NCBI GenBank assembly: GCA_964015495.1
Contig: CAXHDG010000006.1
Coordinates: 27,566-91,565, forward strand
From: an uncultured Magnetococcales bacterium
GTDB taxonomy: Bacteria; Pseudomonadota; Alphaproteobacteria; UBA2136; JAPKEQ01
Reading direction: 5' to 3'
Length of the DNA: 64,000 nucleotides
Shown here: piece by piece, positions 1,950 through 56,863 of the stretch
Position numbering within the stretch: position 1 is the first letter of the stretch
Layout of the letters: every line of letters starts with the position of its first letter
Notes under the pieces: generated by a model
Told to the model about the DNA's origin: nothing
What the model saw: the letters and a program-made list of their open reading frames with translations, nothing else
Database searches by the model: none
Translations under genes and position numbers: made by a program

Positions 1950-2246
1950 ATGCAGTTAATAAAACCTGAAGATGCCCTGAGCATGCCGCGCGGTTACTTA
2001 CTTGAAAGAGTTAAGCTAGCGATTGGAAGCAGTTACATTTCTGCCCGTAGACCTTTTACTCAAGAAGAGCTATTGAAGGCTGCACAGATTGCCATCCTTC
2101 ATGAAAAAACACTCTTCCAAACTCAATCTCATATTGTTGCCTATATTCGCAATTTTAATAAGCAGCTTAAAAGCCCGCAGGCTCCTGAGACCTTTCAAGC
2201 CACTGCTTCTAAAAAGTGGGCTGATAGATTTGGATCCATTCGATAA
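1950..2246 (+). CDS. Hypothetical protein (98 aa)
   Basis: Intact ORF followed directly by the terminator at 2248-2276. No recognised motif. Confidence 0.45.
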   Translation: MQLIKPEDALSMPRGYLLERVKLAIGSSYISARRPFTQEELLKAAQIAILHEKTLFQTQSHIVAYIRNFNKQLKSPQAPETFQATASKKWADRFGSIR

Positions 2247-2247
2247 T

Positions 2248-2276
2248 AAAAAGCCTCGCATTTGCGGGGCTTTTTG
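2248..2276. terminator. Bidirectional rho-independent terminator between convergent genes
   Basis: A-run, stem GCCTCGC/GCGGGGC, then T-run. Confidence 0.65.
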
Positions 2277-10934: not shown

Positions 10935-10980
10935 TGGGCACTCTTTTACGCTAGGATGACACTGTTACAGTCCCCCCAAA

Positions 10981-11010
10981 CAAAAAGCCCCGCACTTGCG
11001 GGGCTTTTTA
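10981..11010 (-). terminator. Rho-independent terminator (likely the rpoC operon terminator; bidirectional shape)
   Basis: A-run, stem AGCCCCGC/GCGGGGCT, then T-run, about 135 nt downstream of the rpoC stop. Confidence 0.6.
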
Positions 11011-11144: not shown

Positions 11145-14100
11145 TTAGTCGATTTGGCCTGTTACGTCAGTTGCCAGTTGGCTTTTACGCATTGAGCTCA
11201 GCATCTTACCTGTTCCCGCAGGAATCAGACGTCCAACAATCACGTTTTCTTTCAGACCGTTAAGATCATCAACCTTACCGCTTGTGGCTGCATCCGTAAG
11301 AACCTTGGTGGTTTCTTGGAATGACGCCGCAGAGATGTAAGAGCGTGTTGTTAGGCTGGCTTTCGTAATACCCTGCAAGTGTCTTTCGAACTCAGCAGGT
11401 GTTTTACCTTGCGCAACAAGACGTGCGTTCTCTTCTTCAACTTCCTGTGCATCCGCAAGTTCGTTAGGAACAAACGTTGTCGCACCGGCACGTGTAATCA
11501 TCACTTTACGCATCATCTGGCGCATAATCACCTCAATGTGCTTATCGTTGATTGTTACACCCTGAAGACGATATACGCTCTGGATTTCAGCAATCATGTA
11601 TTCAGCAAGAGCTTCTACACCCTGAGTACGGAGAATATCCTGAGGTACACGCGCACCTTCAATCAGCATTTCACCGGCCTCAATGTAGTCACCGTCACGT
11701 ACGTTCAGGTGAACACCTTTAGGTACAAGATACTCACGGATATCGTCCATGCCGTCTTCTGTCTTACCGCTTACGATAATACGACGCTTACCTTTTAGGT
11801 CTTTACCAAATGATACTGCACCTTCAACTTCAGAGATCAGGGCACTATCTTTAGGCTTACGTGCTTCAAAGAGTTCAGCAACGCGTGGCAAGCCCCCGGT
11901 AATATCGCGAGACTTAAGAGATTCGCGAGGCATACGAGCGATCGTATCACCAGCTGCAACTTCTTTACCATCTTCTGCAGAAAGAATCGCATCTACAGGA
12001 AGGAAGTAAATCGCTTGCGCACCGTTTGGCAGTGTTACAACTTTACCTTTTTTGTCGATAAGAACCATAGCAGGCTTCATGTCAGCACCACGTGGGTTTT
12101 GCTTCCAGTCAAGAACTGTCTTAGATGACATACCAGTGGTTTCATCCATTTCTTCCTTGATAGAGACACCATCAACAAGATCCATAAATTGAACTGTACC
12201 TTGTGCTTCTACCATAATTGGAAGTGTATATGGATCCCAATCCGCTAGCGTTGTACCAAGTTCAGCAGTATCACCGTCTTTGACATGTACTTTAGAACCG
12301 TAAGGTAGTTTGTGCTCTTCACGCTCACGGCCAGATTTATCAATAATCTTCGCGTTTGCGTTACGGCTCATGATGATGTTGTTACCATCAGAGTTTGTCA
12401 CAGTGACTACGTTTTCAAGTTTTAGAGTACCTTCAGACTCAGATGTTGCTTTAGACTTCGCTGTACCAGCAGATGCTGTACCACCAATGTGGAACGTACG
12501 CATGGTCAGCTGTGTACCCGGTTCACCAATTGACTGTGCGGCAATTACACCTACAGCTTCACCGATGTTTACAGGTGTACCACGAGCAAGGTCACGTCCG
12601 TAACATTTCGCACATACACCTTCCTTGTTGTCACAAGTTAGTACAGAACGAACGTTAATTGTACCAATACCAGCGGTTTCAATTGCATCTACAAGCTCTT
12701 CATCAAGAAGTGTATCGCGGACAGCAATAATATCGCCAGTGAGTGGGTTTACAACATCTTCAGCTACGGTACGGCCAAGAATACGATCAGAAAGTGATTC
12801 CATCACGTTTCCGCTATCTGTAATAGCAGATACACTGATAGAGTTTTCTGTTCCACAGTCATCTTCAACAATCACACAGTCCTGAGATACATCTACAAGA
12901 CGACGTGTCAGGTAACCTGAGTTCGCTGTCTTTAGGGCTGTATCGGCAAGACCCTTACGCGCACCGTGAGTCGAGTTAAAGTACTGGAGTACGTTTAGCC
13001 CCTCGCGGAAGTTCGCTGTAATCGGCGTTTCGATAATCTCACCGTTCGGCTTGGCCATCAAACCACGCATACCAGCAAGCTGACGCATCTGAGTTACCGA
13101 ACCACGGGCTCCAGAGTTTGCCATCATGTAAACACTGTTTACAGAAGGCTGTGTGCGTTTTTCGCCGTCAATATCAAGCTGCTTGTCAGAAATTTCAGCC
13201 ATCATGACATCTTTAACCATATCGGTTGTACGCTGCCAAATATCGATGACTTTGTTATATTTCTCACCAGATGTAATCAGACCATCCATGTACTGCTGTT
13301 CCATGCGTTTCACTTCAGCTTCCGCGTCAGATACAAGCGTGTACTTAGAGTCAGGGATAACCATGTCATCTTTACCAAACGAGATACCCGCACGTGCCGC
13401 AAACTTAAATCCAAGCTGCATAAGGTGGTCAGCAAAGATACAAGTCACTTTCTGGCCGCACTTCAGGTAGACAGTATGAAGCAATGCTCCAACTTCTTTC
13501 TTCGTGAGGATTTTGTTGATTGCGTTAAAGCTAAGCTCTGGATGCTCAGGAAGCAGCTGCGCAAGAATCAAACGACCCACAGATGTGTCATATGTCTTAC
13601 CGCGGAAGCGACCTTTAATGCGTGTGTGAAGCGTTACACTTTTCTCATTAAGAGCGTGCTCAATTTCACCAATGTTTGCAAATACACTGCCTTCACCCAC
13701 TTCGCCAAAGCGAGCAAGAGATAGCCAGTATAGACCCAGAATAATATCCTGAGATGGAACAACAATCGGCTTACCAGAAGCTGGTGAGAGAATGTTGTTT
13801 GTAGACATCATCAATACGCGTGCTTCAATTTGGGCTTCCAGAGATAGAGGTACGTGTACCGCCATTTGGTCACCATCAAAGTCGGCGTTGAATGCTGTAC
13901 ATACAAGCGGGTGAAGCTGAATCGCTTTACCTTCAATAAGCTTAGGCTCAAAGGCTTGGATACCAAGACGGTGAAGTGTCGGTGCACGGTTAAGCATAAC
14001 CGGGTGCTCACGAATTACTTCTTCAAGTGCATCCCAAACTTCAATCTCACCATCTTCAACCATACGCTTAGCGGCTTTAATTGTTGTCGCGAGGCCTTTC

Positions 14101-15266
14101 AGCTCAAGGCGTTGGTAAATAAATGGTTTAAATAGCTCAAGTGCCATCTTCTTCGGCAAACCACATTGGTGAAGAAGTAGATCAGGACCAACGGTAATAA
14201 CCGAACGACCAGAGTAATCTACACGCTTACCAAGAAGGTTTTGACGGAAGCGACCTTGCTTACCTTTAAGCATGTCTGCAAGTGATTTAAGTGGGCGCTT
14301 GTTCGCACCTGTAATCACGCGTCCACGACGGCCGTTATCAAACAGCGCATCAACAGATTCTTGAAGCATACGCTTCTCGTTACGGATGATGATTTCTGGA
14401 GCACGAAGCTCTAGAAGGCGTTTTAGACGGTTGTTACGGTTAACGACGCGGCGATAAAGATCGTTAAGATCAGATGTCGCGAAGCGGCCACCATCAAGTG
14501 GTACAAGAGGACGAAGCTCTGGTGGAAGTACTGGAATAACATCCATAACCATCCACTCTGGCTTGTTACCAGAATCACAGAAAGCGTTTACAACTTTAAG
14601 ACGCTTAACAAGCTTACGACGACGTACATCAGGTAGATCATCAGATAGCTCAGCTTGCATATCAGCTTGAAGTGTTTTCAGATCAAGTTCTTTAAGCAGC
14701 GTACGGATCGCTTCCGCACCAATTTCTGCTGTAAATGAATCTTCACCAAACTCGTCTTGTGCGTCCATAAGCTCTTCATCAGTTAGCATCTGGTGCTTCT
14801 CAAGTGTTGTTACACCTGGGTCAGTCACAAGGAAAGATTCAAAGTAGAGAACCTTTTCAAGGTCTTTAAGCGTAAAGTCCAGAATCGCACTCATGCGGCT
14901 AGGAAGAAGTTTTAGGAACCAAATGTGTGCAACAGGCGCAGCAAGGTCAATGTGACCCATGCGCTCACGGCGTACTTTAGATTCAATAACTTCCACGCCA
15001 CATTTTTCACACACAATACCACGGTGCTTCATGCGTTTGTATTTACCACACAGACATTCGTAGTCTTTTACTGGGCCAAAGATACGGGCACAGAACAGAC
15101 CGCCATGCTCTGGCTTGAATGTACGGTAGTTAATCGTTTCTGGTTTCTTCACTTCACCAAACGAGCGAGAACGGATTTGTTCAGGTGCTGCGATTGAAAT
15201 TCGGAGAGCTTCAAAAAGCTTTTGGTTTTGTTGCTTGTTTCCGAACAGGTTTGCGATATCGTTCAT
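11145..15266 (-). CDS. rpoC: DNA-directed RNA polymerase subunit beta'
   Basis: 1373 aa with the catalytic [12 protein letters not shown] motif, a zinc-binding [20 protein letters not shown] block, and a position immediately downstream of rpoB. Confidence 0.98.
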
Positions 15267-15293: not shown

Positions 15294-18200
15294 TTAGTTT
15301 GAGTGTTCTGCTGATGTGGCATCAATCGCTTCCACACCGTCTGGTACAGGAAGAGCATCAAGCTCAGTCATATCATCTGCTGTGCCATCAACCATGTCTG
15401 GTGCTTCTTCCAGCATTTCAACGTTTAGACCAAGTGCCATCATCTCATGCACAAGTACGTTGAACGACTCAGGAATACCCGCTTCAAAGTTTTGCTCACC
15501 ACGAACAATTGCTTCGTAAGTCTTCGTACGACCCGAAACATCATCAGATTTCACAGTTAGCATCTCTTGAAGTGTATATGCTGCCCCGTAAGCTTGCAGA
15601 GCCCATACTTCCATCTCACCAAAACGCTGTCCACCAAACTGGGCTTTACCACCAAGAGGTTGCTGCGTTACCAGAGAGTACGGTCCAATAGAACGTGCGT
15701 GAATCTTCTCATCCACAAGGTGGTGCAGTTTCAGCATGTAGATGTAACCCACTGTGGTTCTACGATCAAACGCTTCCCCGCTGCGGCCATCAAACAGTTG
15801 AACCTGTCCATCTCTGTCAAGATCAGCATCATCAAGAAGGTCTGAGATATCTTTCTCAAGCAGACCATCAAACACAGGTGTTGCCATTGGCATACCTTTT
15901 TGCAGATTACCTGCAAGTTCCATGATTTCACCATCACTTAAAGCTTTTAGGCCTTTAGGATCTGTTCCATCTTTGTACATTTTCTCAAGATATGTGCGGA
16001 CTTCTTTCACATCACCATCTTCAAGAAGAGCTTTTACTTTTTTACCGATACCGGCAGCAGCCCAACCAAGGTGTGTTTCAAAAATCTGACCCACGTTCAT
16101 ACGAGATGGTACACCAAGAGGGTTAAGTACGATATCAACGTGCTCACCATCTTCCATAAACGGCATGTCTTCAATTGGGTTAACCTTAGAGATAACACCC
16201 TTGTTACCGTGACGACCAGCCATCTTATCACCAGGCTGAAGCTTACGCTTCACAGCGATGTAAACTTTAACCATCTTCAGAACGCCAGGTGAAAGCTCGT
16301 CCGCAGCACGGATTTTTTCGATCTTCTCTTCACGACGCTCATCAAGGGCTCTTACAGCGCTATCAAAGTGAGTTTTCAGGCCTTCAAGGTCTTTCATGAG
16401 TTTGTCATCACTGATAGCAATCTTCCACCAGTCAATCTTCTTCATATCCTCTAGCATATCGCCAGTGATTTCTTTGCCTTTAGTGATTGAGCCATCAATC
16501 TTGTTCGCCGCTTTCTGGCCAATAAGAGCTTCTCTAAGACGTCCGTATACGTCCGTCTCAAGAATACGGCGTTCATCCGCAAGGTCACTGCTAAGTTTTA
16601 GGATTTCCTGCTCTTCAATCTCAAGGGTACGGGCATCTTTTTCCCCGCCACGGCGGTTGAAGACTTTTACGCCAACAACAGTACCGATAAGCCCTGGAGG
16701 AACGCGCAGTGACGTATCACGTACATCTGCAGCCTTCTCACCAAAGATCGCGCGAAGAAGTTTTTCTTCAGGCGTCATTGGTGTTTCACCCTTAGGTGTA
16801 ATCTTACCAATAAGAATATCGCCAGGTTTAACATCTGCACCAATGCGGATGATACCAGCTTCATCTAGGTTTTTAAGAGCAACTTCACCTACGTTAGGAA
16901 TATCACGTGTGATTTCCTCAGCGCCAAGCTTTGTATCACGCGCTTGTACGTCGTACTCATCAATGTGAATCGATGTGAAGACGTCATCACGTACAATACG
17001 CTCAGAAATTAGGATTGAATCCTCAAAGTTGTAACCATTCCATGGCATGAAGGCCACAAGTACGTTACGGCCAAGCGCAAGCTCACCCATATCCGTAGAG
17101 GCACCATCCGCCATAATATCGCTTTTCTTCACAAGGTCACCCTTGCTCACAAGAGGACGTTGCGTCATGCAACTGTTTTGGTTAGAACGTTTGAATTTAT
17201 CCATACGGTACACGTCAACACCAGAAGCAGACGCATCTACATCTTCAGTTGCACGTACTACGATACGGTTCGCATCAACACTTTCAACAATACCGCCACG
17301 TTTTGCAACAACAGTAATACCACTGTCACGCGCTACGATAGCTTCCATACCTGTACCAACAAGTGGTGCTTCCGCACGCAGTAGTGGAACGGCCTGACGT
17401 TGCATGTTCGATCCCATAAGGGCACGGTTTGCATCATCGTTTTCTAGGAAAGGAATAAGTGCCGCCGCTACAGATACAATCTGCTTTGGTGCCACGTCCA
17501 TGTACGTTACTTCATCACGAGGCACAAATACAACTTCACCACGCTTACGACATACAACGAAATCTTCCGTCATTTTGCCAGCTTTATCCAGTGGGCTGTT
17601 TGCCTGTGCAATGTAGTGCTCGCCTTCTTCAATCGCGCTCATGTAGTGTACTTCGTCAGTCACCTTAGAAGCGTCAACCTTACGGTATGGCGTTTCAATG
17701 AAACCGTACTTGTTCACTTTAGCGTATGTAGAAAGTGAGTTAATTAGACCAATGTTTGGTCCCTCAGGCGTTTCAATCGGGCAAATACGGCCGTAGTGCG
17801 TGGTGTGTACATCACGTACTTCAAAACCAGCACGCTCACGTGTCAGACCGCCGGGCCCAAGCGCACTAATACGACGCTTGTGAGTCACTTCTGAAAGTGG
17901 GTTTGTTTGGTCCATAAACTGAGACAGCTGAGATGAGCTAAAGAACTCACGTAGCGCTGCGCTAAGTGGACGCGCGTTTACAAGGTCATGTGGCATCATT
18001 TGTGAAATTTCACTACTTGCCATACGCTCTTTTACTGAGCGCTCCATACGAAGGAGACCAACGCGGAACTGGTTTTCAAGAAGTTCACCAACACTACGTA
18101 CACGACGGTTACCAAGGTGGTCAATGTCATCTACGCTATCGTTACCATCACGGATGTCGATAAGTTTTTGAATCACAGCCAGCATATCTTCTTTACGAAG

Positions 18201-18641
18201 AACACTGATCTCTTCGCCAAGGTCTTTAAAGCCAAGGCGTGCGTTCATTTTCATACGACCAACATCAGAAAGGTCAAAACGCTCGCTATCAAAGAACATT
18301 GTGTTGAAAAGTTTGCTTGATGCTTCAAGGGTTGGCGGCTCACCTGGGCGCATAACCTTGTAAATTTCAGCAAGAGCTTTTTCACGTGAGTCTGTTTTAT
18401 CAATTTGAAGCGTGTTACGGATGTAACCACCAACGTTAAGGTGATCAATCTTGAGAATCTTGAAGCCTTTAAACTTCATTTCTTCTAGCTTCTCAATAAT
18501 TTCCATTGTAATTTCAGAACCGATTTCAAACAGAACTTCACCTGTTGATTTCTCAACAATCGCTTCACCAAGGTAGCGGCCAAGAAGATCTTCTTTTTCT
18601 TGAGAGATCCATTTTGTACCAGCTTCTTCAATTTGCTTCAT
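15294..18641 (-). CDS. rpoB: RNA polymerase beta subunit, C-terminal 1115-aa fragment (rpoB split by tandem duplication)
   Basis: Conserved beta blocks such as [16 protein letters not shown] and MRPGEPPT. It begins at an internal Met inside duplicated copy 1. Confidence 0.9.
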
Positions 18642-19052
18642 TTTGCGTTTTGTCGGCTTTTTACCAGCTCGCTATCAAAGAACATTGTGTTGAAAAGTTT
18701 GCTTGATGCTTCAAGGGTTGGCGGCTCACCTGGGCGCATAACCTTGTAAATTTCAGCAAGAGCTTTTTCACGTGAGTCTGTTTTATCAATTTGAAGCGTG
18801 TTACGGATGTAACCACCAACGTTAAGGTGATCAATCTTGAGAATCTTGAAGCCTTTAAACTTCATTTCTTCTAGCTTCTCAATAATTTCCATTGTAATTT
18901 CAGAACCGATTTCAAACAGAACTTCACCTGTTGATTTCTCAACAATCGCTTCACCAAGGTAGCGGCCAAGAAGATCTTCTTTTTCTTGAGAGATCCATTT
19001 TGTACCAGCTTCTTCAATTTGCTTCATTTTGCGTTTTGTCGGCTTTTTACCA
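18281..19052. repeat. Perfect 386-bp tandem direct duplication inside rpoB (copy 1 at 18281-18666, copy 2 at 18667-19052)
   Basis: The two copies read identically base for base by eye. A 3-bp GCT microhomology continues at 19053-19055. 386 is not a multiple of 3. Confidence 0.9.
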
Positions 19053-19918
19053 GCTTTAACAAGAACGTCTTTGTTATCGGCATCGATAAGGTCTTGTTCC
19101 AGCTTCACGCCCATGTAAAACATTGGCTCAAATCCAAGGGCGAATTTGCCAGACTTAATACGCACTTCTACAGTATCGTAGAATGTTTCAAGAATTTCTT
19201 CTTCGCTCATTTCAAGTGCACGAAGAACGTAAGTTGCAGGCAGCTTACGACGACGGTCAATACGTACGTACATGTTATCTTTGTGGTCAAACTCAAAATC
19301 AAGCCATGACCCGCGGAATGGAATCACGCGTGCTGAGAAGAGAAGCTTACCAGATGAGTGCGTTGAACCGTTATCGTGGTCAAAGAACACGCCCGGGCTA
19401 CGGTGCATCTGAGAGACAATAACACGCTCAGTACCGTTAATAACAAAGGTACCGTTACCTGTCATAAGAGGCACATCACAAAGATAGACTTCTTGCTCTT
19501 TAATATCCTGAACACTACGTGCGCCAGTTTCTTCGTTTTTCTCGTAAACAGTAAGACGAAGAACCACTTTTAGCGGCGTTGCGTATGTCATATCACGTTG
19601 TAGACATTCGTCTACATCAAATTTTGGCGCTTCGAGTACGTGAGACACGTAGTCAAGCTCTGCCAGGCCAGCACTGTCCTCAATAGGGAACATTGTGCTC
19701 AGTGCGCTTTTTACACCAGAGTTAACCTCTTGTGGTTTGCCACCTTTGCCTTTTTTGACGAATACTTCGCCAGAAAGAAACTTTTCAAATGATAGTTTTT
19801 GAATGTCGAGCAGATTTGGAAGTTCTGCTACAGATTGAATTGAACCGTAATTTTTGCGGATACGCTTTTTCTCAGTGAACGTATAAGACATGTTATGAGC
19901 CACCCTTTGCCTTGTCAC
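18638..19918 (-). CDS. rpoB: RNA polymerase beta subunit, N-terminal 426-aa fragment (frameshifted at the duplication junction)
   Basis: Canonical beta N-terminus ([12 protein letters not shown]). The last 14 codons (LVKSRQNAK and preceding) are out of frame after the junction at 18666/18667. Confidence 0.9.
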
Positions 19919-20155: not shown

Positions 20156-20527
20156 CTATTTAAGTTCAACTTTAGCACCAGCAGCTTCAAGTTTCTTCTG
20201 AATTTCTTCAGCGTCCGCTTTAGAAGCACCCTCTTTAACAACTTGAGGAGCGCCTTCAACCATGTCTTTAGCTTCTTTGAGGCCAAGACCAGTGATTGCA
20301 CGTACTTCTTTAATTACGCCGATTTTGTTTCCGCCTGTTTCAGCAAGAACAACGTCGAACTCAGTTTTTTCTTCTGCAGCAGCAGCATCGCCACCAGCAG
20401 CAGGAGCTGCAACAGCAGCAGCAGCGGCGCTAACGCCCCATGCTTCTTCTAGAAGTTTAGAAAGCTCTGCAGCTTCCATTACTGTAAGAGTTGATAGCTC
20501 TTCAACCATTTTGTTAAGATCAGCCAT
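20156..20527 (-). CDS. rplL: 50S ribosomal protein L7/L12
   Basis: 123 aa with an Ala-rich hinge and a C-terminal [15 protein letters not shown]...[12 protein letters not shown]. Confidence 0.97.
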
Positions 20528-26542: not shown

Positions 26543-27091
26543 TTACGGGTTTGGCACAATCACAAATGTAATTGTATCTGTATAAGTTCCATTTGGCACA
26601 CCAAGCGGCGCGCCAGTATCCGTTACCGTCACACGAATATCAGATGTATCACCACCAGCTGTCACGCAGTCATCATCTGTGCCCGTTGCCGTTGTTACAG
26701 TATAAGTTACTGTTTCATTTAGCGCGGAGTAAGCACCTGCACCAAGCGTATCATTCTGATACTCAAGTCCATATACAATGTTATTGGCACCAAGATTCAT
26801 TTGGTAACCCGGACCTGCCGAGTTTGCTGAGGTTGCTGTAATATCGTACTGGTTTGCATTATTGTAATAAATACAAGCTCCAGAAGTACCAATCACATCA
26901 CCGCCACCAGGAACATATTGCGCAAGAACAACATCAGCAAGATTACTGACCTTTACTTCTTCTAGTACATCCATAGTGACAACAAGCGTACCTGTTGATG
27001 TGACACCAGCAATACCTTGAGTTGCTGCCTGCGCAGACGCAGCCATGAGAACTCCAGCACATATTGCTGTTAGCGATTTTATGGGGGTCAT
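26543..27091 (-). CDS. Secreted beta-rich protein, SCPU/Csu-pilin-like or DUF4402-like (paralog 1, 182 aa)
   Basis: Signal peptide ending ASAQA. The C-terminal G-Y-DTIT-V-V strand resembles pilin/SCPU termini. About three-quarters identical by eye to the next gene. Confidence 0.4.
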   Translation of the reverse strand: MTPIKSLTAICAGVLMAASAQAATQGIAGVTSTGTLVVTMDVLEEVKVSNLADVVLAQYVPGGGDVIGTSGACIYYNNANQYDITATSANSAGPGYQMNLGANNIVYGLEYQNDTLGAGAYSALNETVTYTVTTATGTDDDCVTAGGDTSDIRVTVTDTGAPLGVPNGTYTDTITFVIVPNP

Positions 27092-27237
27092 CGCATTTTC
27101 CTTTTCTTTTTATTATATATGCCTGACTACCTGTAGACATATATTCACACCAAAGAGGGCATAAACCAGCCACCTTCCATGCACCTTATCAACCACAACA
27201 AATGATCAACAAGTAGGAATTATCCATTCTTTAGAGG

Positions 27238-27267
27238 TAAAAAGCCCCACGACTGCGGGGCTTTTTA
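27238..27267 (-). terminator. Rho-independent terminator
   Basis: Stem AGCCCC/GGGGCT flanked by A- and T-runs. Confidence 0.65.
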
Positions 27268-27286: not shown

Positions 27287-27835
27287 TTATGGGTTTGGAA
27301 CCACTACAAGCGTAATTGTATCTGTGTATGTACCGTTGGCTACACCAAGTGGAGAACCAGTATCTGTCACAGTTACACGAAGATCAGATGTATCACCTGT
27401 CGCTGTTACACAGTCATCATCAACTGATGTTGCTGTGTTAACAGTGTATACCGTTGTCTCGTTCATAGCAGAATACGCACCTGCACCAAGAGCATCGTTT
27501 TGGTATTCTACAGCATATGGAATAACATCCGCACCAAGGATCATTTGGTAACCAGGACCTGCTGAGTTAGCTGATGTCGGTGTTATGTCATATTGAGTAG
27601 CGTTGTTATAGTAAACACATACAGGAGAACTGCCTGTAATGTTACCACCACCAGGGACATACTGCGTTAGCGGGATATCTACTAGGTTACTAATTTTAAC
27701 TTCCTCAAGTACATCCATAGTGACAACAAGCGTACCTGTTGATGTTGGACCAGCAATACCTTGAGTTGCTGCCTGTGCAGACGCTGCGGCCATTACACCG
27801 GCACACGTTGCTGAAAGTAGCTTCATGAGTTTCAT
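27287..27835 (-). CDS. Secreted beta-rich protein, SCPU/Csu-pilin-like or DUF4402-like (paralog 2, 182 aa)
   Basis: The MKLMKLLSATCAG start at 27835 has an AAGGA RBS, whereas the ORF-track start at 27865 is GTG. Same length and architecture as paralog 1. Confidence 0.4.
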   Translation of the reverse strand: MKLMKLLSATCAGVMAAASAQAATQGIAGPTSTGTLVVTMDVLEEVKISNLVDIPLTQYVPGGGNITGSSPVCVYYNNATQYDITPTSANSAGPGYQMILGADVIPYAVEYQNDALGAGAYSAMNETTVYTVNTATSVDDDCVTATGDTSDLRVTVTDTGSPLGVANGTYTDTITLVVVPNP

Positions 27836-28175
27836 CGCGATTTTCCTTTTCATTTTTATTGGCACATGTCTTACCTACCTGCTCGACATATATGTGCACC
27901 AAAGAGATTAACACATTATTTTCTCTCCTGTGCATATTATTCGACTCCGAGAAGTCATATTATTATGTACTTTGTAACAAATGGTTACAGCCTGTTGCAT
28001 ACTTGCACACAGTATTTATGGATATACAGGAGCAAGATAAATGCCGATTTCCCTAGGATTTCCGCAAAAAATATATATTGTCAGGAATCTGTCAGAAATT
28101 TATTGCATGCAACACCACGCTCAGCAAGGTTTTTACTAAAAATATGTCAGGAGTAATTTTTTTTCATATTCCCCA

Positions 28176-28296: not shown

Positions 28297-28574
28297 ATTG
28301 GTTCCCAAACCAAAGGGAAGCCAAGGGATACAAACCTTTTCATTAAGGTTTTACACTAAAAATTTGGGAAATATAACCTGAGTTTTTGCAACTGAACTAC
28401 AAAAAGTGTCCAAAACTGTACACAATTTGTAACGGGAAGCAAATAACACTGGACATTTCGCAAATATTGGGGAAAATTGGCAAGAATACTTTGATTTTTG
28501 AAAAGCAAATGTACACCTTGTACATAAGCGATAAGAAAAACAAAAGATTTACACCAAGCTAACCAAAACACTGT

Positions 28575-28650
28575 TCCGATGTAGCTCAGTTGGTAGAGCA
28601 AATGACTGTTAATCATTGGGTCACAGGTTCGAGTCCTGTCATCGGAGCCA
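28575..28650 (+). tRNA. tRNA-Asn (GTT)
   Basis: Acceptor TCCGATG/CATCGGA, anticodon loop CTGTTAA, T-arm ACAGG-TTCGAGT-CCTGT and an encoded CCA. Confidence 0.9.
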
Positions 28651-28653
28651 TTT

Positions 28654-28685
28654 AAAACCCCTAGGAAACTGGGGGTTTTAATTTT
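28654..28685 (+). terminator. Rho-independent terminator after tRNA-Asn
   Basis: Stem AACCCC/GGGGTT followed by a T-rich run. Confidence 0.55.
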
Positions 28686-28738
28686 CTCCTCCCTCAAAAA
28701 AAGTAAAACACCCCGCCTAAGCGGAGTGTTTTTTCGAT

Positions 28739-28969
28739 TTAGTCGCCCCATTTCCATTGTTGCGTGCTTTCACGCAGATCCTTTTGGGCTGCGTTGAACT
28801 CGTTCAGAGAGTATCCCAACATGCAAAGCGCCAGCACAACGAGGATGGCGTATACCTCTGCACCAATGTTGATGCCAACGAGCATCAACACAACTGCGAT
28901 GGCGCAGAGCGCCATCATAATCCATAGTACGTTTGTGAAGAGTTCCATCAAAGCCATGGCGTTTTCCAT
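28739..28969 (-). CDS. Small membrane protein (76 aa, 2 TM)
   Basis: Two hydrophobic helices, followed on its strand by a hairpin/T-run at about 28706-28735. Confidence 0.45.
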   Translation of the reverse strand: MENAMALMELFTNVLWIMMALCAIAVVLMLVGINIGAEVYAILVVLALCMLGYSLNEFNAAQKDLRESTQQWKWGD

Positions 28970-46567: not shown

Positions 46568-46590
46568 TGGTGCGTCGAAAGGACTCGAAC
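46568..46590. repeat. Direct repeat of the tRNA-Leu 3' end (distal att-like boundary of the island)
   Basis: TGGTGCGTCGAAAGGACTCGAAC matches TGGTGCCGTCGAAAGGACTCGAAC at 61559-61582, with a single 1-nt gap. Confidence 0.75.
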
Positions 46591-46674
46591 ACAGGGCCTA
46601 ATTCACTGTTATTTAATCGATTCAAACATCACACAGACGAATAGCACCCCCAAACACACCCCTAAAGGTCTGCT

Positions 46675-49600
46675 CTATCCGACTACTTTCTCATATATAT
46701 GATTTTTAGCGTCTATATACTGATCATAAAAATGCTCAAATAAAGAGGCACACTTTGACATAAAAATATGCTCATCATAGGCATCAGGAAGTTTACTGTC
46801 GCAGATTTCCTCGATAGTATCTCTAACTTTAGCTCTGGAAGATTGTTTCTTCCTCCAGTCATAGACTAACTTTTCCGCTTTGAGCGTCTCTAATAACTCT
46901 TTTGCTGTCTCCTTAACCACCTCGATATCCTTTTTAGACATCTTTGGTTCAGGCTTGGTTAATATATCAAAAAGAACTAATTCTTCCTCAGTTAGGTTTT
47001 CTTTAATGTGCCTATGTTCTTCTGCATCAAGATCTCTTGAGAATTTTACAAGTTCAAGAAATATTTTTTCTAGGTCAATATTACCAGAGTTATAGTCTGC
47101 TATAAGATTTTCAAATCTTTCAAGGTAGCTTTTTCTGTGTTTATTCGCCTCTAGCATGCTTGATAACCTTTTTCCTAGCGAGCTCTTGAGGCTTTCTAAT
47201 AGAGTTCTTTGATTTTCTTTATTGAAGAAGCGCTCTTGCAGTTCCTCAAAATCAATTTTAGCAAGATTGAATGGTGTTGTACCTGTGATTTGGTAGCTAT
47301 CGAGACTAACTGACTCATTGAGCAGCGTTTCCACCCTTTCAGCAAGACCTTCTATTTGCTGTTTGTTAATAGGGGTTTTTGTTATTTCGTATACCTTAGC
47401 TGTTAAGATCGTAACGATCAGGCTTTGCTTTAGGTAGCTTTCGGCTCTAACATCAGGCAATACGGCCTTGAGGGATTTTTGTAGGTGTGAGGTTAATTCT
47501 AAAAACTTCTGTTTTGAATCTTCAGTGTGCAAAATTCGATCAACTGCATCATCAGTCATTTGAATTTTTACAAAGTTATCTTTTTCTACATAAATTTCTT
47601 GAGTACTAATAGATTGCTTAGATAAGTATTCATCCATTTTTTTCGATGATTGACTAAGCATAGTAACAAGTGCCTCTTTATCTTCAACAGGACTGTGTTC
47701 TCCCTCACCACCATTACTAGGGTTGCCATATATGGCTAGTGCTTTTTGTAGAGATTTAAAAATACCTATATAGTCAACAATGATCCCACTAGGCTTCTCA
47801 CCCCATACCCTGTTCGCTCGTGCAATTGTTTGCATAAGCGTATGGTCTTTTAGGATTTTATCGAGATATAGAGTAGAAATTGCGGGAGCATCAAAACCTG
47901 TAATCCACATTGCACATACAAATACAATTCTTAGTGGATCTTCTGGCTTTTTAAACTTAACATCAAGCTCTTCTTTATTGCTTCTTTCCCTATGAGGCTT
48001 AATATCTACGCCTTTTTTCTTAAGCGTTTCTATTTCATTTTGAGCAGAAGAAACAATAACAGCCATGTCTGTTTCTTCCATATATCGTACTTTATCCTCG
48101 ATAGAGGCTTTAATACTTGGGCTACAAGATAAAAGCTGTTTCTTTAAACCATCGATATAAGCTTGCCAATGCAATTTGACTTTATCATGCATTTTAATGG
48201 CTGTGGCTTTATCAATCGCTACATACATAGCCTTGCCCATAAACCCGCGATTCATAAAATGGTCAACTACATCTTTAGCAATGCTGTCTAATCTATGATC
48301 CCTGGTTATTAACTGGTATGTTGAGGCATATTCTTTTTCAAAACGCTCCTCTTCTTCGTCTGTTAAGCCTGCTTCAGAGATAATTTCTTTGATATCTTCT
48401 TCAAGATTGTCATTGATAATTTGGAGGTCTGGTCTACGATTTTCATAAAATAGCTCAACCGTGGCTTTATCCTCTACAGACTCTGCATAGTTATAGGTAC
48501 TAATATAATCTCCAAATACCTCCTTAGTGCGCTCATCACCTCTCATGAGAGGCGTACCAGTAAATGCTAGAAAAGATGCGTTAGGAAGGGCTTTACGCAT
48601 GTTCATTGCCAGGACATTATATTGACTACGGTGTGCTTCATCTGTGATGACAATAATATCACCTCGATCGGAAAGCATTTCGTACTCCTGACCTTTTTCC
48701 TCTGTACCAAATTTTTGAATCATTGTGAATACGTTGCGGTGATCTTCAGTCAAAAGCTTTTTCAAATCAGCTCTATTTTTAGCTCTAACACCTTTTTCTG
48801 TAACGGCACCTGAATTAACAAAATTTTTATAAATTTGGCTATCTAAATCTTCTCGATCAGTGACGATGAGAAACGTCCAATTCCCTGGAATTTTGCGAAG
48901 AATTTTTTGAGTTAAAAAGACCATGGAGAAGCTTTTACCACTTCCTTGAGTATGCCAGAACACGCCAAGCTTTCCATGCTTATTGTCTTTATCTTTAACG
49001 CTTCCAACAGCATCGTTAACTCCGAGAAATTGGTGATTTTTAGCTAAAATCTTTGCTGTACCACCCTTACTGTCCATATATAGGATAAAGTTTTCTATAA
49101 GGTCTAAAAGGTTCCCTTTCTCTAAAGCACCTTTAATCACTGTATCAAGTGAGATAAGGCCCTGCTCACCATCAGAGTTGATTTTTTTCCAATCTGCAAA
49201 GTGCTCCCAAGCGGATGTAATTGTTCCCAGCCTGCTTTCTGTGCCATTAGAGACAACAATAAAAGCGTTATGCCAAAAAGCTTGTGGGATAGCTTCCTTG
49301 TAATGCGTGATGTTGTCTTTGTAGGCATTTATAAGCTGCTTATGCGATGCCTTGAGTTCAATAAAGATAAGAGGAAGCCCGTTAATGAAAATAACCAAAT
49401 CTGCCCTGCAGTTATACATTTCGCCAGATATTTTGAACTGTCGCACAACAAGGAAATCATTATTATCTGGATTTTTCCAGTCAATTACGTTCACAACATC
49501 CTCTGTTTCGATGCCATTTTCATCTTTATAGGAAACAGTAATTCCATCTTTAATAAGCTTGTAGAGCTCTTTGTTTGCTGTAACAGGGTTAAGTGTGCTT

Positions 49601-49842
49601 TTCCCTTCGGAAAGGGCATAAATGGCTGAATCAATCGCCTCAATTGGAATATCAGGATTAATACTGGTTAAAGCATTACGTAACCTAGCAGGTAACACAA
49701 CTTCAGAAGGTATATTACGCTCAAAAAGAGATCCCTCGCCATACGTCTCACTGTTTGCATTCTCAGACGCATAACCCAGCTCTTCAAGCCGCTGTATCAC
49801 AGCAAGCTCTAGCGATTCTTCTGAAAAGTCATTTCTCGTCAT
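46675..49842 (-). CDS. hsdR: Type I restriction enzyme, R subunit
   Basis: 1055 aa with Walker A TQGSGKS and the DEAH box ITDEAHRSQ, in an operon with hsdM/hsdS. Confidence 0.9.
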   Translation of the reverse strand: MTRNDFSEESLELAVIQRLEELGYASENANSETYGEGSLFERNIPSEVVLPARLRNALTSINPDIPIEAIDSAIYALSEGKSTLNPVTANKELYKLIKDGITVSYKDENGIETEDVVNVIDWKNPDNNDFLVVRQFKISGEMYNCRADLVIFINGLPLIFIELKASHKQLINAYKDNITHYKEAIPQAFWHNAFIVVSNGTESRLGTITSAWEHFADWKKINSDGEQGLISLDTVIKGALEKGNLLDLIENFILYMDSKGGTAKILAKNHQFLGVNDAVGSVKDKDNKHGKLGVFWHTQGSGKSFSMVFLTQKILRKIPGNWTFLIVTDREDLDSQIYKNFVNSGAVTEKGVRAKNRADLKKLLTEDHRNVFTMIQKFGTEEKGQEYEMLSDRGDIIVITDEAHRSQYNVLAMNMRKALPNASFLAFTGTPLMRGDERTKEVFGDYISTYNYAESVEDKATVELFYENRRPDLQIINDNLEEDIKEIISEAGLTDEEEERFEKEYASTYQLITRDHRLDSIAKDVVDHFMNRGFMGKAMYVAIDKATAIKMHDKVKLHWQAYIDGLKKQLLSCSPSIKASIEDKVRYMEETDMAVIVSSAQNEIETLKKKGVDIKPHRERSNKEELDVKFKKPEDPLRIVFVCAMWITGFDAPAISTLYLDKILKDHTLMQTIARANRVWGEKPSGIIVDYIGIFKSLQKALAIYGNPSNGGEGEHSPVEDKEALVTMLSQSSKKMDEYLSKQSISTQEIYVEKDNFVKIQMTDDAVDRILHTEDSKQKFLELTSHLQKSLKAVLPDVRAESYLKQSLIVTILTAKVYEITKTPINKQQIEGLAERVETLLNESVSLDSYQITGTTPFNLAKIDFEELQERFFNKENQRTLLESLKSSLGKRLSSMLEANKHRKSYLERFENLIADYNSGNIDLEKIFLELVKFSRDLDAEEHRHIKENLTEEELVLFDILTKPEPKMSKKDIEVVKETAKELLETLKAEKLVYDWRKKQSSRAKVRDTIEEICDSKLPDAYDEHIFMSKCASLFEHFYDQYIDAKNHIYEKVVG

Positions 49843-49858
49843 AATTGATTACCTGTTG

Positions 49859-50731
49859 CTAAGTTCTATCTTCAAAGTAGTGCGTCACGATAAAATTTGC
49901 TAGTGTTTTTGATGTATTTACCGCCAGCAATGCATCTTTCTGCGTCGGTTCAAAAGTAATATTGTGTGAATCGCTCATACCGTGCCTTAAGAGGTTCATA
50001 CCTTGGCCCAGAGTATTAAACCCTTCTTCTAGCTTCTCATACCCCTTCTTAATCTTTAAGTCGAACCCATTAGGTAGCTTTAAAACGTCTAGAACTGTTT
50101 TGAGAAGCTTATCAAAATCCCCTCCATATCTCCCCCTTCTACCAGAGGGAATTTTATCGATTTGGATTTCTCTGAGAATCTGCTCTAGAAGTGAACGAGA
50201 ACTTGTAATGGCTCCTGAATAATCCCCCTCTAATATCCTGCCAACACATTTTTTATTATGTTCAGCAATCAGGTGATGCTGACCTTGCAAGTTCTCAGCA
50301 AAAAGACAATCATAGCTCACTAAACAATCTAGTAATGAATGTATTGAGTAACGTTCTAACGCTTCTACATAGATGATTTCATAATCATCCTCTATAAATG
50401 ATTCATTGATTTTAGCAACCAACTCTTCAGCAAGGTCTGAACAGACTAATATTGAGAGAAAATTTTCGGTAAAAACCCTTAATTCTCCAGTTCCATTCAA
50501 CTCAGATATCTTTAGCTTTGCATAACTGTTTATCTTGAAGTGTTTATTCGCATATAGTTGACTATTTTTTACCTCATCTACGCCTTCAAAAGCTTTGTCA
50601 TAGGTTTCAACCCTAACAGAAGTGCCATTTAAATACTGCTCAAACCCTTTTTTGGTTACATCAAGGCCAAAGCCTTCATCAGTCGTTAAGATTTTTGAAA
50701 GCCTATCAATGGATGCGTAACCTAATAGCAT
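49859..50731 (-). CDS. Abi_C (abortive infection C-terminus) domain protein embedded in the R-M operon
   Basis: The C-terminal half, EGDYSGAITSSRSLLEQILREI...LLRHGMSDSH...ALLAVNTSKTLANFIV, follows the Abi_C consensus pattern. Confidence 0.55.
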   Translation of the reverse strand: MLLGYASIDRLSKILTTDEGFGLDVTKKGFEQYLNGTSVRVETYDKAFEGVDEVKNSQLYANKHFKINSYAKLKISELNGTGELRVFTENFLSILVCSDLAEELVAKINESFIEDDYEIIYVEALERYSIHSLLDCLVSYDCLFAENLQGQHHLIAEHNKKCVGRILEGDYSGAITSSRSLLEQILREIQIDKIPSGRRGRYGGDFDKLLKTVLDVLKLPNGFDLKIKKGYEKLEEGFNTLGQGMNLLRHGMSDSHNITFEPTQKDALLAVNTSKTLANFIVTHYFEDRT

Positions 50732-51936
50732 TACATTTTAATTTCTAGGTTTGAAACGTCTAACTCACCAGAAATAAGCTTAGGTAATAGCATATCTCTA
50801 GTTCTTTCTAGGTTAAAATTACACTCTTTTAATTTATCCATTTGACTCAATAGATCAATGATTTTCAAATTATATTCTTGCTGTAAGTTTTCGCTAGGTA
50901 ATATTATTTCCTTACTTACCAGTTCTGACCAGTGACGTTTATACTCTTTTGTACTCACAAGGCTTGAAATTAAATAATATAAGAATGATGTTGGCATTGA
51001 TGATTTAAGCGGCACAAACGGAATAACATTTGCCCCTACAGAAAATGGCTTGATTAGGATTTGCATTTTACAAGTGTGGTCACCAAATATAATGATAGGG
51101 TTATCAGTGCTGGCGGCTTGGTCAGCCTTATTATTATGATAACCAAGGACATCATTAGTAGACTGGTCAATAACAGGAGTACTGCCAGAACTCCCTACAT
51201 TCTTTTGTGTATATTTCAAGCCCGCAGGTTTTCTTTTTAGAATACCTCCCACACTTTCACACGACCACCCTTCAGGAATAAGCCCAAGTTCAGACCCAAC
51301 AAATTTAGCACGTTCATGACCAGGGAATTTAAAATCAACAAACCAGTGTTTATAAAGTTTTTGCGCCACCTCTTCTAAAATTTGAATGCGCTTGTTGTTA
51401 TTTTCAATCAAATCATCATAAGCCGATAGAACTCCAGCGATTTTATTTTGGATTTTAATATCTTTTGGGTATGATATTTCAAAGCCTTCTAGGGACTCTT
51501 TTGTCAAGGCTTCACGTGTAGCACCACCTTGAGCAATGGATAGTAAACGTTGTTTGTTTTTACTGCTCACTAAAGAGTAATAGGCAAATTTAGAGAGTAT
51601 CTTGTCTTGATTCAACCTAATAATGGCTACATGCTGATTCACACGTGCAGGTAAAGCCTCTTCTGGAACTATACAGCAACGAGCAACTGAAGCTCCTGTA
51701 ATATTAAGCAGGACATCATTTTTCAGAACATTAACATTATCTAATTTTTTCGATTGTTTTTCATCTATACATGCTAAATCGTTCCATTTAAATGAATAAT
51801 CATGAACATTCATACTCCTGATTAAAAATACACCAACTTCCTTATAAGCCCCTTTACCTCCTGTAGGAGTAGCACCACTTCCAATCTTTAACGTTAAGCC
51901 TTTTAAAGTAGATGATTTCCATGCTTGCGTAGGCAT
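50731..51936 (-). CDS. hsdS: Type I restriction-modification specificity subunit
   Basis: 401 aa with two target-recognition halves separated by conserved helical spacers, located between hsdM and hsdR. Confidence 0.85.
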   Translation of the reverse strand: MPTQAWKSSTLKGLTLKIGSGATPTGGKGAYKEVGVFLIRSMNVHDYSFKWNDLACIDEKQSKKLDNVNVLKNDVLLNITGASVARCCIVPEEALPARVNQHVAIIRLNQDKILSKFAYYSLVSSKNKQRLLSIAQGGATREALTKESLEGFEISYPKDIKIQNKIAGVLSAYDDLIENNNKRIQILEEVAQKLYKHWFVDFKFPGHERAKFVGSELGLIPEGWSCESVGGILKRKPAGLKYTQKNVGSSGSTPVIDQSTNDVLGYHNNKADQAASTDNPIIIFGDHTCKMQILIKPFSVGANVIPFVPLKSSMPTSFLYYLISSLVSTKEYKRHWSELVSKEIILPSENLQQEYNLKIIDLLSQMDKLKECNFNLERTRDMLLPKLISGELDVSNLEIKM

Positions 51937-51938
51937 AG

Positions 51939-53510
51939 CTATACCCCCAATAATTTCTTAACATTATGTGAAATCTTACTTTCTAAATCATGTGCGTTTG
52001 AATTTAATCCTAGCAACTCATCATTCAACTCTTTGAGGCGTTCTTCGAAAATGTAATCTTCTTCTTCAGCCTCTGCTACATCCACATAACGGCCAGCGTT
52101 TAAGCTCCAGTCTTGTTTTTCAATAGCTTCTTTATCTACAACCTTACAAAGCCCTGCAATATCCCTGTATTCAAGGTTAGGGAACTCAGCTTCCAAGTCT
52201 TTTTTCTTTGTATGGTTAAACTCTAATGAGTCTTGGTCCCCCCTATAAAGCTTCACAATGTTAGCAATACGCTCCACATGAGCTTCTGTGAACTCTCTAT
52301 GCGCCCTATCAACCTGTTTGTAAATTTCACGTACATCTAAGAATAAAGTCTTATCAGCTCTGTCCGTACGTGGTTTACCATTATCAAAGAACCAGAGTGT
52401 ACAAGGGAGGGTTACATTGTGGAAGAAGTTTGAACCGACAGACACCATGACATCAACCACTCCACTTTGAATGATTTTCTTACGTATTTCTTGCTCTGAC
52501 TGCCTTGCATCACTTGCTGAGTTCGGCATAACAAAACCTGCACGGCCATCCTCAGCTAGTGCTGTATAAAAATCCTGAATCCACAGATAGTTTGCATTAT
52601 CAACCTTTGGAATACCCAGACTATAACGAGGGTCACCCTTTACACGGTCTTTATCGATACCACTTACGTTAAATGGAGGATTGGCCATTACAAAGTTAAA
52701 CTTACCAACACTGTTGTGCATATCCTCATAGAAGGTGTTACCCTGCTTGATGTCACCCTCTAAGCCGTGAACAGCAAGGTTCATTTTACCAAGCTTCACC
52801 GTTTCTTCTGTTTTCTCCTGCCCATAAATAGTGATTTTATCATTAGGGTTGAATTTATGACGCTTAACAAATTCAGCGGACTGAACAAACATACCACCCG
52901 AACCACAAGCAGGGTCAAATACTGAGCCTTGTATGGGCTTAAGAATTTCTACAATAAGACGAACAATAGAGGTTGGAGTGAAAAATTCACCGCCACGTTG
53001 ACCTTCAGCTCCAGCAAACTTGCCAAGGAAGTATTCATAGATCTTACCAAAAGCATCTCCTTCAAGTTCTCCAATTTTCATTTCAGAGAACGTTTTAAGG
53101 AGTGCTATAAGGAGTTCTTTTTCAATACGGAGGTAGTTTTTAGGTAGAACATCTTTCAATGAAGGGTTACCAGATTCAATCTTACTCATAGCTTCATTGA
53201 TGATTTTACCGATATTATCACTTTCAGTGAGTGATCGCAGGTAAGAAAAGCGAGCTTCTTCAGGTAGGTATAACACACCCTCTGCATGGTACTTAACCTT
53301 TTCATCGGTTGCAGCCCGACGGCGGCTTGATACTTTTTCGCCTGCTTTATCAAACTTCTCTTTAGCTTGGGTAAACTTAAAGTCTGCATATCTCAGGAAG
53401 ATCAGCCCTAAAACAGGTGTTGAGAATTCTGCAGTTTTAAGATTAGATGCAGCTCTTAGCTGATTAGCAGCCGCCCACAAATCATTCTTTACTTTATTGA
53501 TATCACTCAT
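51939..53510 (-). CDS. hsdM: Type I restriction-modification N6-adenine DNA methyltransferase subunit
   Basis: Motif [12 protein letters not shown] and motif IV MANPPFN. Confidence 0.9.
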
Positions 53511-53757
53511 TGTTCTTAATTACCTGATTATGTATCTGGCAAACACTCTACTAAAAATAGTAGAAGATGTCATTAAGTTGGGGGCTTCTGCATGCATGGA
53601 AAATGTTAAAGCGTGGTTATAATACATCAACATACCTCCCCCACCTTACACAATACCAATTACTGTCTCAAACTCTGGCTCTGGTAACCGACCTTCAACT
53701 AGACATATATAGCGGCTTTAGGGTAGGAAGACAGATTAAGATTTAAAATGCCCCCAA

Positions 53758-54549
53758 TTATTCCATAACCTCTTTAATATATTCCCTATGAATCGCATGA
53801 CCATCAATCGTCCATGAGTTGGGAACATTAATCTCATCATCAGTATAAGGGATGCCAAAGTAGTTATAGTACTCTTCTAATAATAGGTAGAACGTTCGGT
53901 TCATTTCACCTTTGGGGTAAGGAATAAAAATCGCTTTCTTTTTGGCAAGAGTATATAGAGCATCCTCAATATAATGGATTTTGCCTGCCACATCATCGAA
54001 ATGCTCAGGGTTTTCTATAGGCCTCATAATCGCATCGAAAATATCATCATATGAAAGACTGTTAAACCATTCAGATAGGTTAAACTTTTTAATAACATGC
54101 CTTACAAAGGCATCTCCCTGACTTGGTTTATTGGTAGCGCTGCAATATCGAGGCGTAACCAAACCATATCGCTCATCTTCAGTGATATCAAAACTCTGTT
54201 TGCTAGGAATAGCAATATCTTCCTTAGAGTATTCAATGCCATAAAAAATATAAAATTCTTCCAGAATGCATTTATATAGTAACTGAACTGCACCTTGTCC
54301 ATCAGGGATATACACGCCCCGCATGCCATGATACCTATGGAAAGTCTCTTCTAGGTCGCTCACATGATCAGAAATATCCAGAAAATCTTCAGCACCAATA
54401 GGTAAGAAAAATTCAACGAGCTCAACTATCTCATCAAAACCCACCCCCAACTGTTGCTCTAATTTAAACTTTATAACAATGTGCTCTGCGAAGTCTAAAA
54501 TACTGTCTAATTGCGCCTTTTTATCTTCTGGTATATCTCCGTATTTCAT
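53758..54549 (-). CDS. Hypothetical protein with internal duplication, co-transcribed downstream of the radical-SAM gene
   Basis: It starts 15 nt after the rSAM gene stop. The two halves share the pattern F-D-------E----------IP-------L----LEE-Y--YGI-Y---DI--P. Confidence 0.5.
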   Translation of the reverse strand: MKYGDIPEDKKAQLDSILDFAEHIVIKFKLEQQLGVGFDEIVELVEFFLPIGAEDFLDISDHVSDLEETFHRYHGMRGVYIPDGQGAVQLLYKCILEEFYIFYGIEYSKEDIAIPSKQSFDITEDERYGLVTPRYCSATNKPSQGDAFVRHVIKKFNLSEWFNSLSYDDIFDAIMRPIENPEHFDDVAGKIHYIEDALYTLAKKKAIFIPYPKGEMNRTFYLLLEEYYNYFGIPYTDDEINVPNSWTIDGHAIHREYIKEVME

Positions 54550-54564
54550 ACTCTTTCCCTACTC

Positions 54565-55527
54565 TTACTGCTCATCTATTAAAAATTTTATCTTTGATCG
54601 GGATTTAATAGCTGGCGCCACTTGCATAAGGTCATCTTTTACAGAGTCTTTTATGTGCCCGGATACCAACATAGGCTCTTTAACCAACTCACCATCGCTG
54701 TTTTCATAAAAGTTCTCAGGGCTGGTGATTTGTCCAAATGCATCTACCATGACATAGTGATTTTTGCGCATGGCATTAGTTTTTGCTTGCACCTCAAAGC
54801 GATAGTGATTTTGCCTAATTAAATCTAAGGCAGATAAAAAATGGTCATCACTTAGCATGAAGTGCTTTCGGTTTTTATAACCCAACTCTCCAATAGGCAT
54901 ATACTGAAAGAGCTGAACGTTTTTAACGCTTGAATACCTATTTAAAATATCTAGTATTTTATATACTCCGTGAACATTCCCTTTGTGAACCACGGTATTA
55001 ATATCTAATGGTACACCATCCTTTTCAGCCATCTCTATAATTTGGAGAGACTCCTCAAATAAAGACTTTCTACCCTTTCTAAAATATGAAACAGATTCTT
55101 GGTCCCAACCATCTAGAGGAATTGATAAGCAATCAACTAATCTAGATAGGTCCTTAAGGCTAACAGCAGGCATATCCATCTTAACTGGGTAAATTGCTTT
55201 ATTTGCTCCCAAAAAGACAGTACCAACAGTATCAACCTTAACCCGCAGCCCTAAATCCTTACAAAGTTTAATAACTTCAATCACGTGCGGATAAGTAAAG
55301 GGGTCGCCTCCACATAAAGTGACCTGACCTAAAGGTTGTTTAGCCATAACCTTTCTTAGAAATTTGGAAATTTCATCAACAGTGAGTATTGAACTAGAGC
55401 TACTGCACCCCTTTAAACCCTTAAGATTTTCTTTGGGAAAATTAAAATAGCATCCTTTACAAACAACAGGGCAAGACAAGCCAATTGCTAAGGATATTTT
55501 ATTAAAAATTATATCATCTAAAACCAT
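54565..55527 (-). CDS. Radical SAM enzyme, viperin-like (candidate prokaryotic viperin)
   Basis: CPVVCKGC (CxxxCxxC) and a GGDPF SAM block. The region after the core aligns by eye with human viperin (INTVVHKGNV, LFQYMPIGE, FMLSDDHF, KTNAMRKNHYVMVDAFG). The MVLDD start is preferred over the ORF-track start at 55632. Confidence 0.6.
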   Translation of the reverse strand: MVLDDIIFNKISLAIGLSCPVVCKGCYFNFPKENLKGLKGCSSSSSILTVDEISKFLRKVMAKQPLGQVTLCGGDPFTYPHVIEVIKLCKDLGLRVKVDTVGTVFLGANKAIYPVKMDMPAVSLKDLSRLVDCLSIPLDGWDQESVSYFRKGRKSLFEESLQIIEMAEKDGVPLDINTVVHKGNVHGVYKILDILNRYSSVKNVQLFQYMPIGELGYKNRKHFMLSDDHFLSALDLIRQNHYRFEVQAKTNAMRKNHYVMVDAFGQITSPENFYENSDGELVKEPMLVSGHIKDSVKDDLMQVAPAIKSRSKIKFLIDEQ

Positions 55528-55537
55528 AACTTGATAA

Positions 55538-55570
55538 CTTCCGCCCAAAAGCTTGCTTTTCAAACGGAAG
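55538..55570. promoter_or_regulatory. Nested inverted repeat in the divergent rSAM/HIT-like intergenic region (candidate operator or 5'-UTR hairpin)
   Basis: CTTCCG (55538-43)/CGGAAG (55565-70) enclose AAAAGC-TT-GCTTTT (55547-60). Confidence 0.35.
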
Positions 55571-56831: not shown

Positions 56832-56863
56832 CTTAACGTTCCCTTCTTTGGACTTTATCTAAC

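Follow-up and report, generated by a model that had tools for sequence, protein, structure and literature searches.

Spontaneous tandem duplications are frequent in bacteria, and they are unstable. Genes for RNA polymerase subunits, in turn, can be divided into adjacent reading frames on the same strand, as in the archaeal rpoB'/rpoB'' and the cyanobacterial and plastid rpoC1/rpoC2 pairs, the RNA polymerases of jumbo phages, and engineered forms of the Escherichia coli beta subunit. In work attributed to Severinov and colleagues (1995 and 1996), fragments of E. coli beta that had been split within dispensable regions or at the archaeal split sites reportedly reassemble and are active in vitro.

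Within the E. coli beta subunit, the insert beta-i4 (SI1, or "dispensable region I") spans residues 225 to 343 and consists of two tandem BBM2 modules, and both deletions and insertions in it are compatible with growth (PMC2939025). Beta-i4 has expanded by tandem BBM2 modules, with one to six repeats depending on the phylum (PMC2939025). Repeats of a different kind have been documented as errors in metagenome-assembled genomes, where false tandem duplications have been described (Chen, Anantharaman, Shaiber, Eren, and Banfield, 2020, Genome Res; PMC7111523).

Here, we describe a 386-bp tandem duplication inside rpoB of an uncultured alphaproteobacterium with a GC content of 43.7%. Among the systems above, it most resembles the false tandem duplications of metagenome-assembled genomes: the copies are identical, lie head to tail, are hundreds of base pairs long, and are found by a repeat finder, a protein-coding gene is corrupted, and other assemblies contradict the extra copy. 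Judging from sequence comparisons, we consider it probable (about 0.8) that this copy is an artefact of assembly, scaffolding, or library preparation. Throughout, "the window" refers to the whole stretch of DNA that was analysed, 64,000 nucleotides (nt) in length; the coordinates of its features are collected in Table 1.

A perfect tandem repeat within rpoB

The duplication lies inside a gene on the minus strand. Deleting one copy restores a single open reading frame (ORF) of 1412 codons plus a stop codon, as an earlier note on this DNA had proposed (4239 nt). The start implied by that ORF, however, does not appear to be the true one. Translation almost certainly begins at an ATG that lies nine codons further downstream and yields a protein of 1403 amino acids (aa), because gene callers picked that ATG in other assemblies and because residue 1 of the 1403-aa version aligns with residue 1 of solved beta subunits. 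The collapsed 1403-aa protein contains all six Pfam domains of beta (Rpb2_1, Rpb2_2, Rpb2_3, Rpb2_45, Rpb2_6, and Rpb2_7), in order and above the curated cut-offs. Its best match in the Protein Data Bank pairs residues 1 to 1364 with residues 1 to 1353 of 7ye1_C (1934.6 bits), and it aligns with E. coli beta over the full length of the latter (residues 1 to 1341). The order of the cluster is canonical (rplKAJL-rpoBC), with L11, L1, L10, and L7/L12 encoded upstream of rpoB and rpoC beginning 27 nt downstream. By all of this, the gene is an ordinary rpoB, and the identification made in the earlier note is borne out by the Pfam domains and the end-to-end match to solved beta subunits. The protein ends in an acidic C-terminal tail of about 37 residues, past any part that aligns to solved beta subunits, which appears to be a lineage-specific C-terminal extension.

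Direct string comparison of the two 386-bp copies gave 0 mismatches, and Tandem Repeats Finder reported a single array at 18281 to 19055 with a period of 386, 2.0 copies, 100% matches, and 0 indels. Both results uphold the earlier claim of two identical copies. The GCT microhomology that the same note placed at the junction is also real, since the period-386 identity extends over 389 nt. There are zero N bases at the join. A perfect repeat of 386 bp cannot have arisen by chance, and by our own calculation the probability that at least three ambiguous junction bases occur by chance is approximately 0.05. Such microhomology is typical of real illegitimate recombination and equally of in vitro template switching or chimeras. 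Within the 64,000-nt window there is no second perfect repeat of similar size; long direct repeats are otherwise limited to one diverged pair with 70 to 79% identity.

Because 386 equals 3 × 128 + 2, the insertion produces a +2 frameshift. The earlier note had reasoned that a unit not divisible by three would break the beta frame, and two ORFs, of 417 and 1115 aa, are indeed what is found. Along the gene, translation stays in frame through its first copy as far as Glu408 (...NTMFFDSE), after which the shifted frame runs into the second copy, encodes LVKSRQNAK, and ends at a TGA. The 417-aa product starts at the ATG at 19891; if a GTG start is used instead, the N-terminal ORF extends to 18638 to 19918 and encodes 426 aa. 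The ATG of the C-terminal fragment is the native, in-frame Met289, and no Shine-Dalgarno core precedes this codon (18641), as opposed to 26 of the 53 called genes of this genome, which have one. The two fragments do not abut but share residues 289 to 408 (120 residues). The N-terminal fragment, in which beta ends at residue 408, has none of the fork, flap, and catalytic domains (Rpb2_3, Rpb2_45, Rpb2_6, and Rpb2_7), and together the two fragments hold every domain of beta.

Aligned to E. coli beta, Met289 corresponds approximately to residue 274 and Glu408 to residue 393. Within the duplicated unit, about 50 residues, MRPGEPPT among them, belong to the conserved beta-2 lobe and the others to the second half of beta-i4, and the N-terminal fragment ends inside this conserved lobe rather than at a domain boundary. 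The duplicated codons (approximately 281 to 408) therefore agree with the earlier description of the unit as the MRPGEPPT block plus a less conserved stretch upstream. Inclusion of the second half of beta-i4, itself made of tandem repeats, is reminiscent of BBM2 expansion. Unlike such expansions, however, the duplication in rpoB is out of frame and runs into the conserved lobe, and we rejected an in-frame gain of a beta-i4 module for these two reasons.

Table 1. Positions of rpoB-associated and other features in the 64,000-nt window
Feature	Coordinates	Strand	Remarks
GC-rich hairpin	2245-2275		
GC-rich hairpin	10979-11009		
rpoC	11145-15266	-	beta prime, 1373 aa, intact; directly downstream of rpoB
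Acidic tail of RpoB	15294-15410		RpoB residues ~1367-1403
rpoB C-terminal fragment ORF	15294-18641	-	1115 aa; residues 289-1403 of the intact protein, 100% identical
Duplicated unit, plus-strand copy 1	18281-18666	-	second copy in gene direction; identical to 18667-19052
rpoB N-terminal fragment ORF	18638-19891	-	417 aa; 408 residues of native beta, then LVKSRQNAK (9 residues, out of frame)
ATGA overlap	18638-18641	-	TGA of N-terminal fragment (18640-18638) on ATG of C-terminal fragment (18641-18639)
Novel junction 38-mer	18650-18687		made by the duplication alone; 1 occurrence in the window
Duplicated unit, plus-strand copy 2	18667-19052	-	first copy in gene direction; native rpoB frame, codons ~281-408
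GCT microhomology	19053-19055		same 3 bases open each copy (18281-18283 and 18667-18669)
rplL	20156-20527	-	ribosomal protein L7/L12; upstream of rpoB
ORF of paralogous pair	26543-27091	-	182 aa
GC-rich hairpin	27236-27266		
ORF of paralogous pair	27287-27865	-	192 aa
133-aa ORF	28356-28757	-	overlaps tRNA-Asn
tRNA-Asn	28575-28650	+	
GC-rich hairpin	28702-28732		
Genomic island	46568-61643		~15 kb
Far bound of island	46568-46590		24-nt imperfect direct repeat of the 3' end of tRNA-Leu(gag)
hsdR	46675-49842		type I restriction-modification
Abi_C gene	49859-50731		between hsdS and hsdR
hsdS	50731-51936		type I restriction-modification
hsdM	51939-53510		type I restriction-modification
Truncated integrase	61072-61422		116 aa; Arm-DNA-binding domain only; adjoins tRNA-Leu(gag)
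tRNA-Leu(gag)	61559-61643	-	insertion site of the island

The organism and the rest of the window

Assemblies of many samples in ENA, JGI, NCBI, and Logan contain the organism at 97 to 100% nucleotide identity, one of them as a scaffold of 884,597 bp, so that the population is very clonal and widespread. Against GTDB species representatives, its RpoB reaches about 65% identity at best among the matches listed.

Elsewhere in the window, a genomic island with a GC content of 36 to 40%, compared with 42 to 50% in the remainder, is inserted at tRNA-Leu(gag). Along with a type I restriction-modification system and an Abi_C gene, it holds a radical SAM gene, a GGDEF protein, and a deoxynucleoside kinase. 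The diverged direct repeat mentioned above corresponds to two adjacent paralogous ORFs, with a start-to-start spacing of 744 bp and no precomputed Pfam match. Whereas the duplication in rpoB is perfect, this pair is an old tandem duplication of a gene and has diverged. A family of GC-rich hairpins between A-runs and T-runs (AAAAAGCCCCGCAnnTGCGGGGCTTTTT) occurs four times, once just downstream of rpoC, and its members look like bidirectional intrinsic terminators. The 133-aa ORF that overlaps tRNA-Asn is probably spurious.

Single-copy rpoB in other assemblies

In a collection of 15 billion proteins, the exact 417-aa and 1115-aa products are present with NCBI and ENA as their sources, and they come from one 97,044-bp contig only. 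The duplication is thus part of a contig on deposit, evidently the one from which the window was taken, and we rejected the possibility of an oddity specific to the window, given that the exact broken products are on record. Among RpoB clusters of at least 90% identity, the two products of the 97,044-bp contig are the only broken members. The other nine distinct RpoB sequences in these clusters, from 14 contigs, are either 1402 to 1403 aa long or truncated where their contigs end, and these positions bear no relation to the boundaries of the unit.

Independent assemblies of the locus were found by using the exact RpoC product, and then the exact L7/L12 product, as look-up keys. Eight public contigs encode the exact RpoC of the window, and in every one shown, rpoB next to it is a single gene: five are complete at 1403 aa, and a sixth stops at 1242 aa, where its contig ends. 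The L7/L12 key added the contigs from five JGI metagenomes, from NCBI assembly GCA_028821995.1, and from run SRR22098079 that reach the site. In total, 13 distinct contigs, drawn from six ENA assemblies, the five JGI metagenomes, the metagenome-assembled genome GCA_028821995.1, and the Logan assembly of SRR22098079, align without gaps from one flank through the unit to the other, with 97.4 to 100% nucleotide identity and a single copy in each. Judged by contig names, they include both MEGAHIT-style (k141_) and SPAdes-style (NODE_) assemblies. A comparison with rpoB of related strains, as proposed in the earlier note, is provided by these 13 contigs and comes out in favour of one copy throughout.

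The largest of the contigs with the exact RpoC is scaffold_1 of ENA assembly ERZ23496338 (884,597 bp). Once one copy is removed from the window, 61,980 bp of it (positions 1145 to 63510) match this scaffold, compared as three overlapping pieces, with 0 mismatches. The extra copy is the sole difference in 62 kb, and there is no other indel.

The 38-mer that spans the novel junction occurs in none of the 13 contigs, nor in any of 16 related loci. Relatives with 94.7 to 99.9% amino acid identity all have one uninterrupted rpoB. Over the same 506-bp stretch, natural strain variation reaches 10 to 13 differences, whereas the two copies in the window differ at 0 positions. None of the contigs and partial products that end within rpoB does so at a boundary of the unit. 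The junction 38-mer was likewise not found in GTDB genome contigs, a result of little weight because the species is apparently absent there. A scan of JGI metagenome contigs matched neither the 38-mer nor an exact wild-type 43-mer control and is uninformative on the junction, and a protein search with the junction peptide returned one 59%-identical fragment while also missing known close relatives and is likewise uninformative.

Origin of the extra copy

The earlier note had offered two readings of the repeat, either an artefact or a duplication that is very recent or heterogeneous. This two-way framing is supported by our results, and the 13 single-copy contigs favour the artefact. That reading is favoured, moreover, because one of those contigs is identical to the window over 62 kb, because the copies differ at 0 of 386 positions when up to 10 to 13 natural differences are found in 506 bp, because the frameshift cuts a single-copy essential subunit and would be lethal unless rescued, and because the class of error is documented for metagenome-assembled genomes. 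The extra copy would then be an error in one deposited contig and not a feature of the organism, and it would have arisen during assembly, scaffolding, gap closing, or contig merging; alternatively, a chimeric library molecule may have been followed by the assembler. The rpoB of the organism would be an ordinary, uninterrupted gene for a 1403-aa beta subunit in a standard rplKAJL-rpoBC cluster. We infer that no cell, or no viable lineage, carries the duplication and that the junction is without support in the source reads.

Several points run in the other direction. A pure de Bruijn assembler would write a junction with 3 bp of overlap only if some reads, real or chimeric, carried it. The absence of Ns at the join counts against an artefact, as it sets this case apart from the commonest scaffolding error, the duplicated overlap at a scaffold join. 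The 3-bp microhomology, though equally typical of in vitro template switching, and the ATGA overlap also speak against it, the latter making rescue by split expression conceivable. In addition, the samples behind the other assemblies may differ from the source sample, and a variant confined to the source sample is compatible with them; these assemblies show that the population normally carries one copy, with the source sample itself outside that comparison. We rejected an old or fixed duplication because the copies differ at 0 of 386 positions and because relatives lack the extra copy. It is also unlikely that a true duplication was collapsed by short-read assemblers, for a real loop longer than k should break contigs at the unit boundaries, and the k141_, NODE_, and Logan contigs are unbroken there.

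A real and very recent duplication confined to one sample is, in all its versions together, unlikely. The rpoB repeat shares with spontaneous microhomology-mediated tandem duplications its head-to-tail arrangement and the perfect identity of a very recent event, and its 3-bp microhomology fits them as it fits in vitro chimeras; known stable cases, in contrast, do not frameshift a single-copy essential gene, and this one is missing from every related assembly. One version, which we consider improbable, places the duplication in a minority of the sampled DNA, whether in nonviable or transient cells or as an unstable duplication, with the assembler having walked the graph loop once, so that the contig would show a variant absent from most cells. 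In favour of this version are the single-copy form in all other assemblies and the frequency and instability of spontaneous duplications in bacteria. It also accommodates the junction: with only 3 bp shared at the join, a pure de Bruijn assembler is unable to invent it and needs junction k-mers in the reads, so that, if such an assembler was used, some reads carried the junction, be it real or chimeric. However, a specific 386-bp duplication at a 3-bp microhomology in an essential gene should be far too rare to attain the minimum k-mer multiplicity at metagenomic depth unless it is tolerated, and in assembled sequence such a variant looks the same as a chimeric library molecule.

A version that we regard as very improbable, more so than a minority variant, is that the duplication is real in the one sample and has made rpoB a translationally coupled split gene, whose 417-aa and 1115-aa fragments form a working RNA polymerase. 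The duplication is, after all, present in the deposited record, its microhomology fits real illegitimate recombination, and the fragments meet in an ATGA stop-start overlap, with the C-terminal one beginning at Met289, inside the change-tolerant beta-i4. Engineered E. coli beta fragments that reportedly reassemble in vitro lend this reading some plausibility, and the locus resembles split polymerase genes in its adjacent same-strand ORFs, in its complete set of beta domains, and in a break in or near beta-i4. Yet the arrangement is missing from the 13 other contigs, including the one that is identical over 62 kb of the window. Translation start signals are lacking in the second fragment, whose internal ATG is without the Shine-Dalgarno core that about half of this genome's genes possess. 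Both fragments would contain an identical stretch of 120 residues from the beta-2 lobe and beta-i4, so that one copy must remain unassembled, and the N-terminal fragment stops within the conserved lobe. Known natural split sites of polymerase genes lie elsewhere, and we know of no bacterium with an rpoB naturally split at this position. We rejected membership in the naturally split polymerase genes on the grounds that the split is not conserved in any relative, that the fragments overlap, and that the core is lacking.

Taken together, the comparisons argue that the duplication is probably not a real feature of this organism. In the case of an artefact, the broken rpoB of a public contig will enter annotations as a pseudogene or a pair of fragments. 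This can distort phylogenies built on marker genes, estimates of completeness, and searches for pseudogenes or genome reduction in this uncultured alphaproteobacterial lineage. If the duplication were real, which is unlikely on this evidence, an essential bacterial polymerase subunit would have withstood an internal duplication that breaks its frame, its gene having become split, which would be relevant to the modularity of the polymerase. A functional split rpoB of this kind would capture the beginning of a split polymerase gene or of a beta-i4 expansion.
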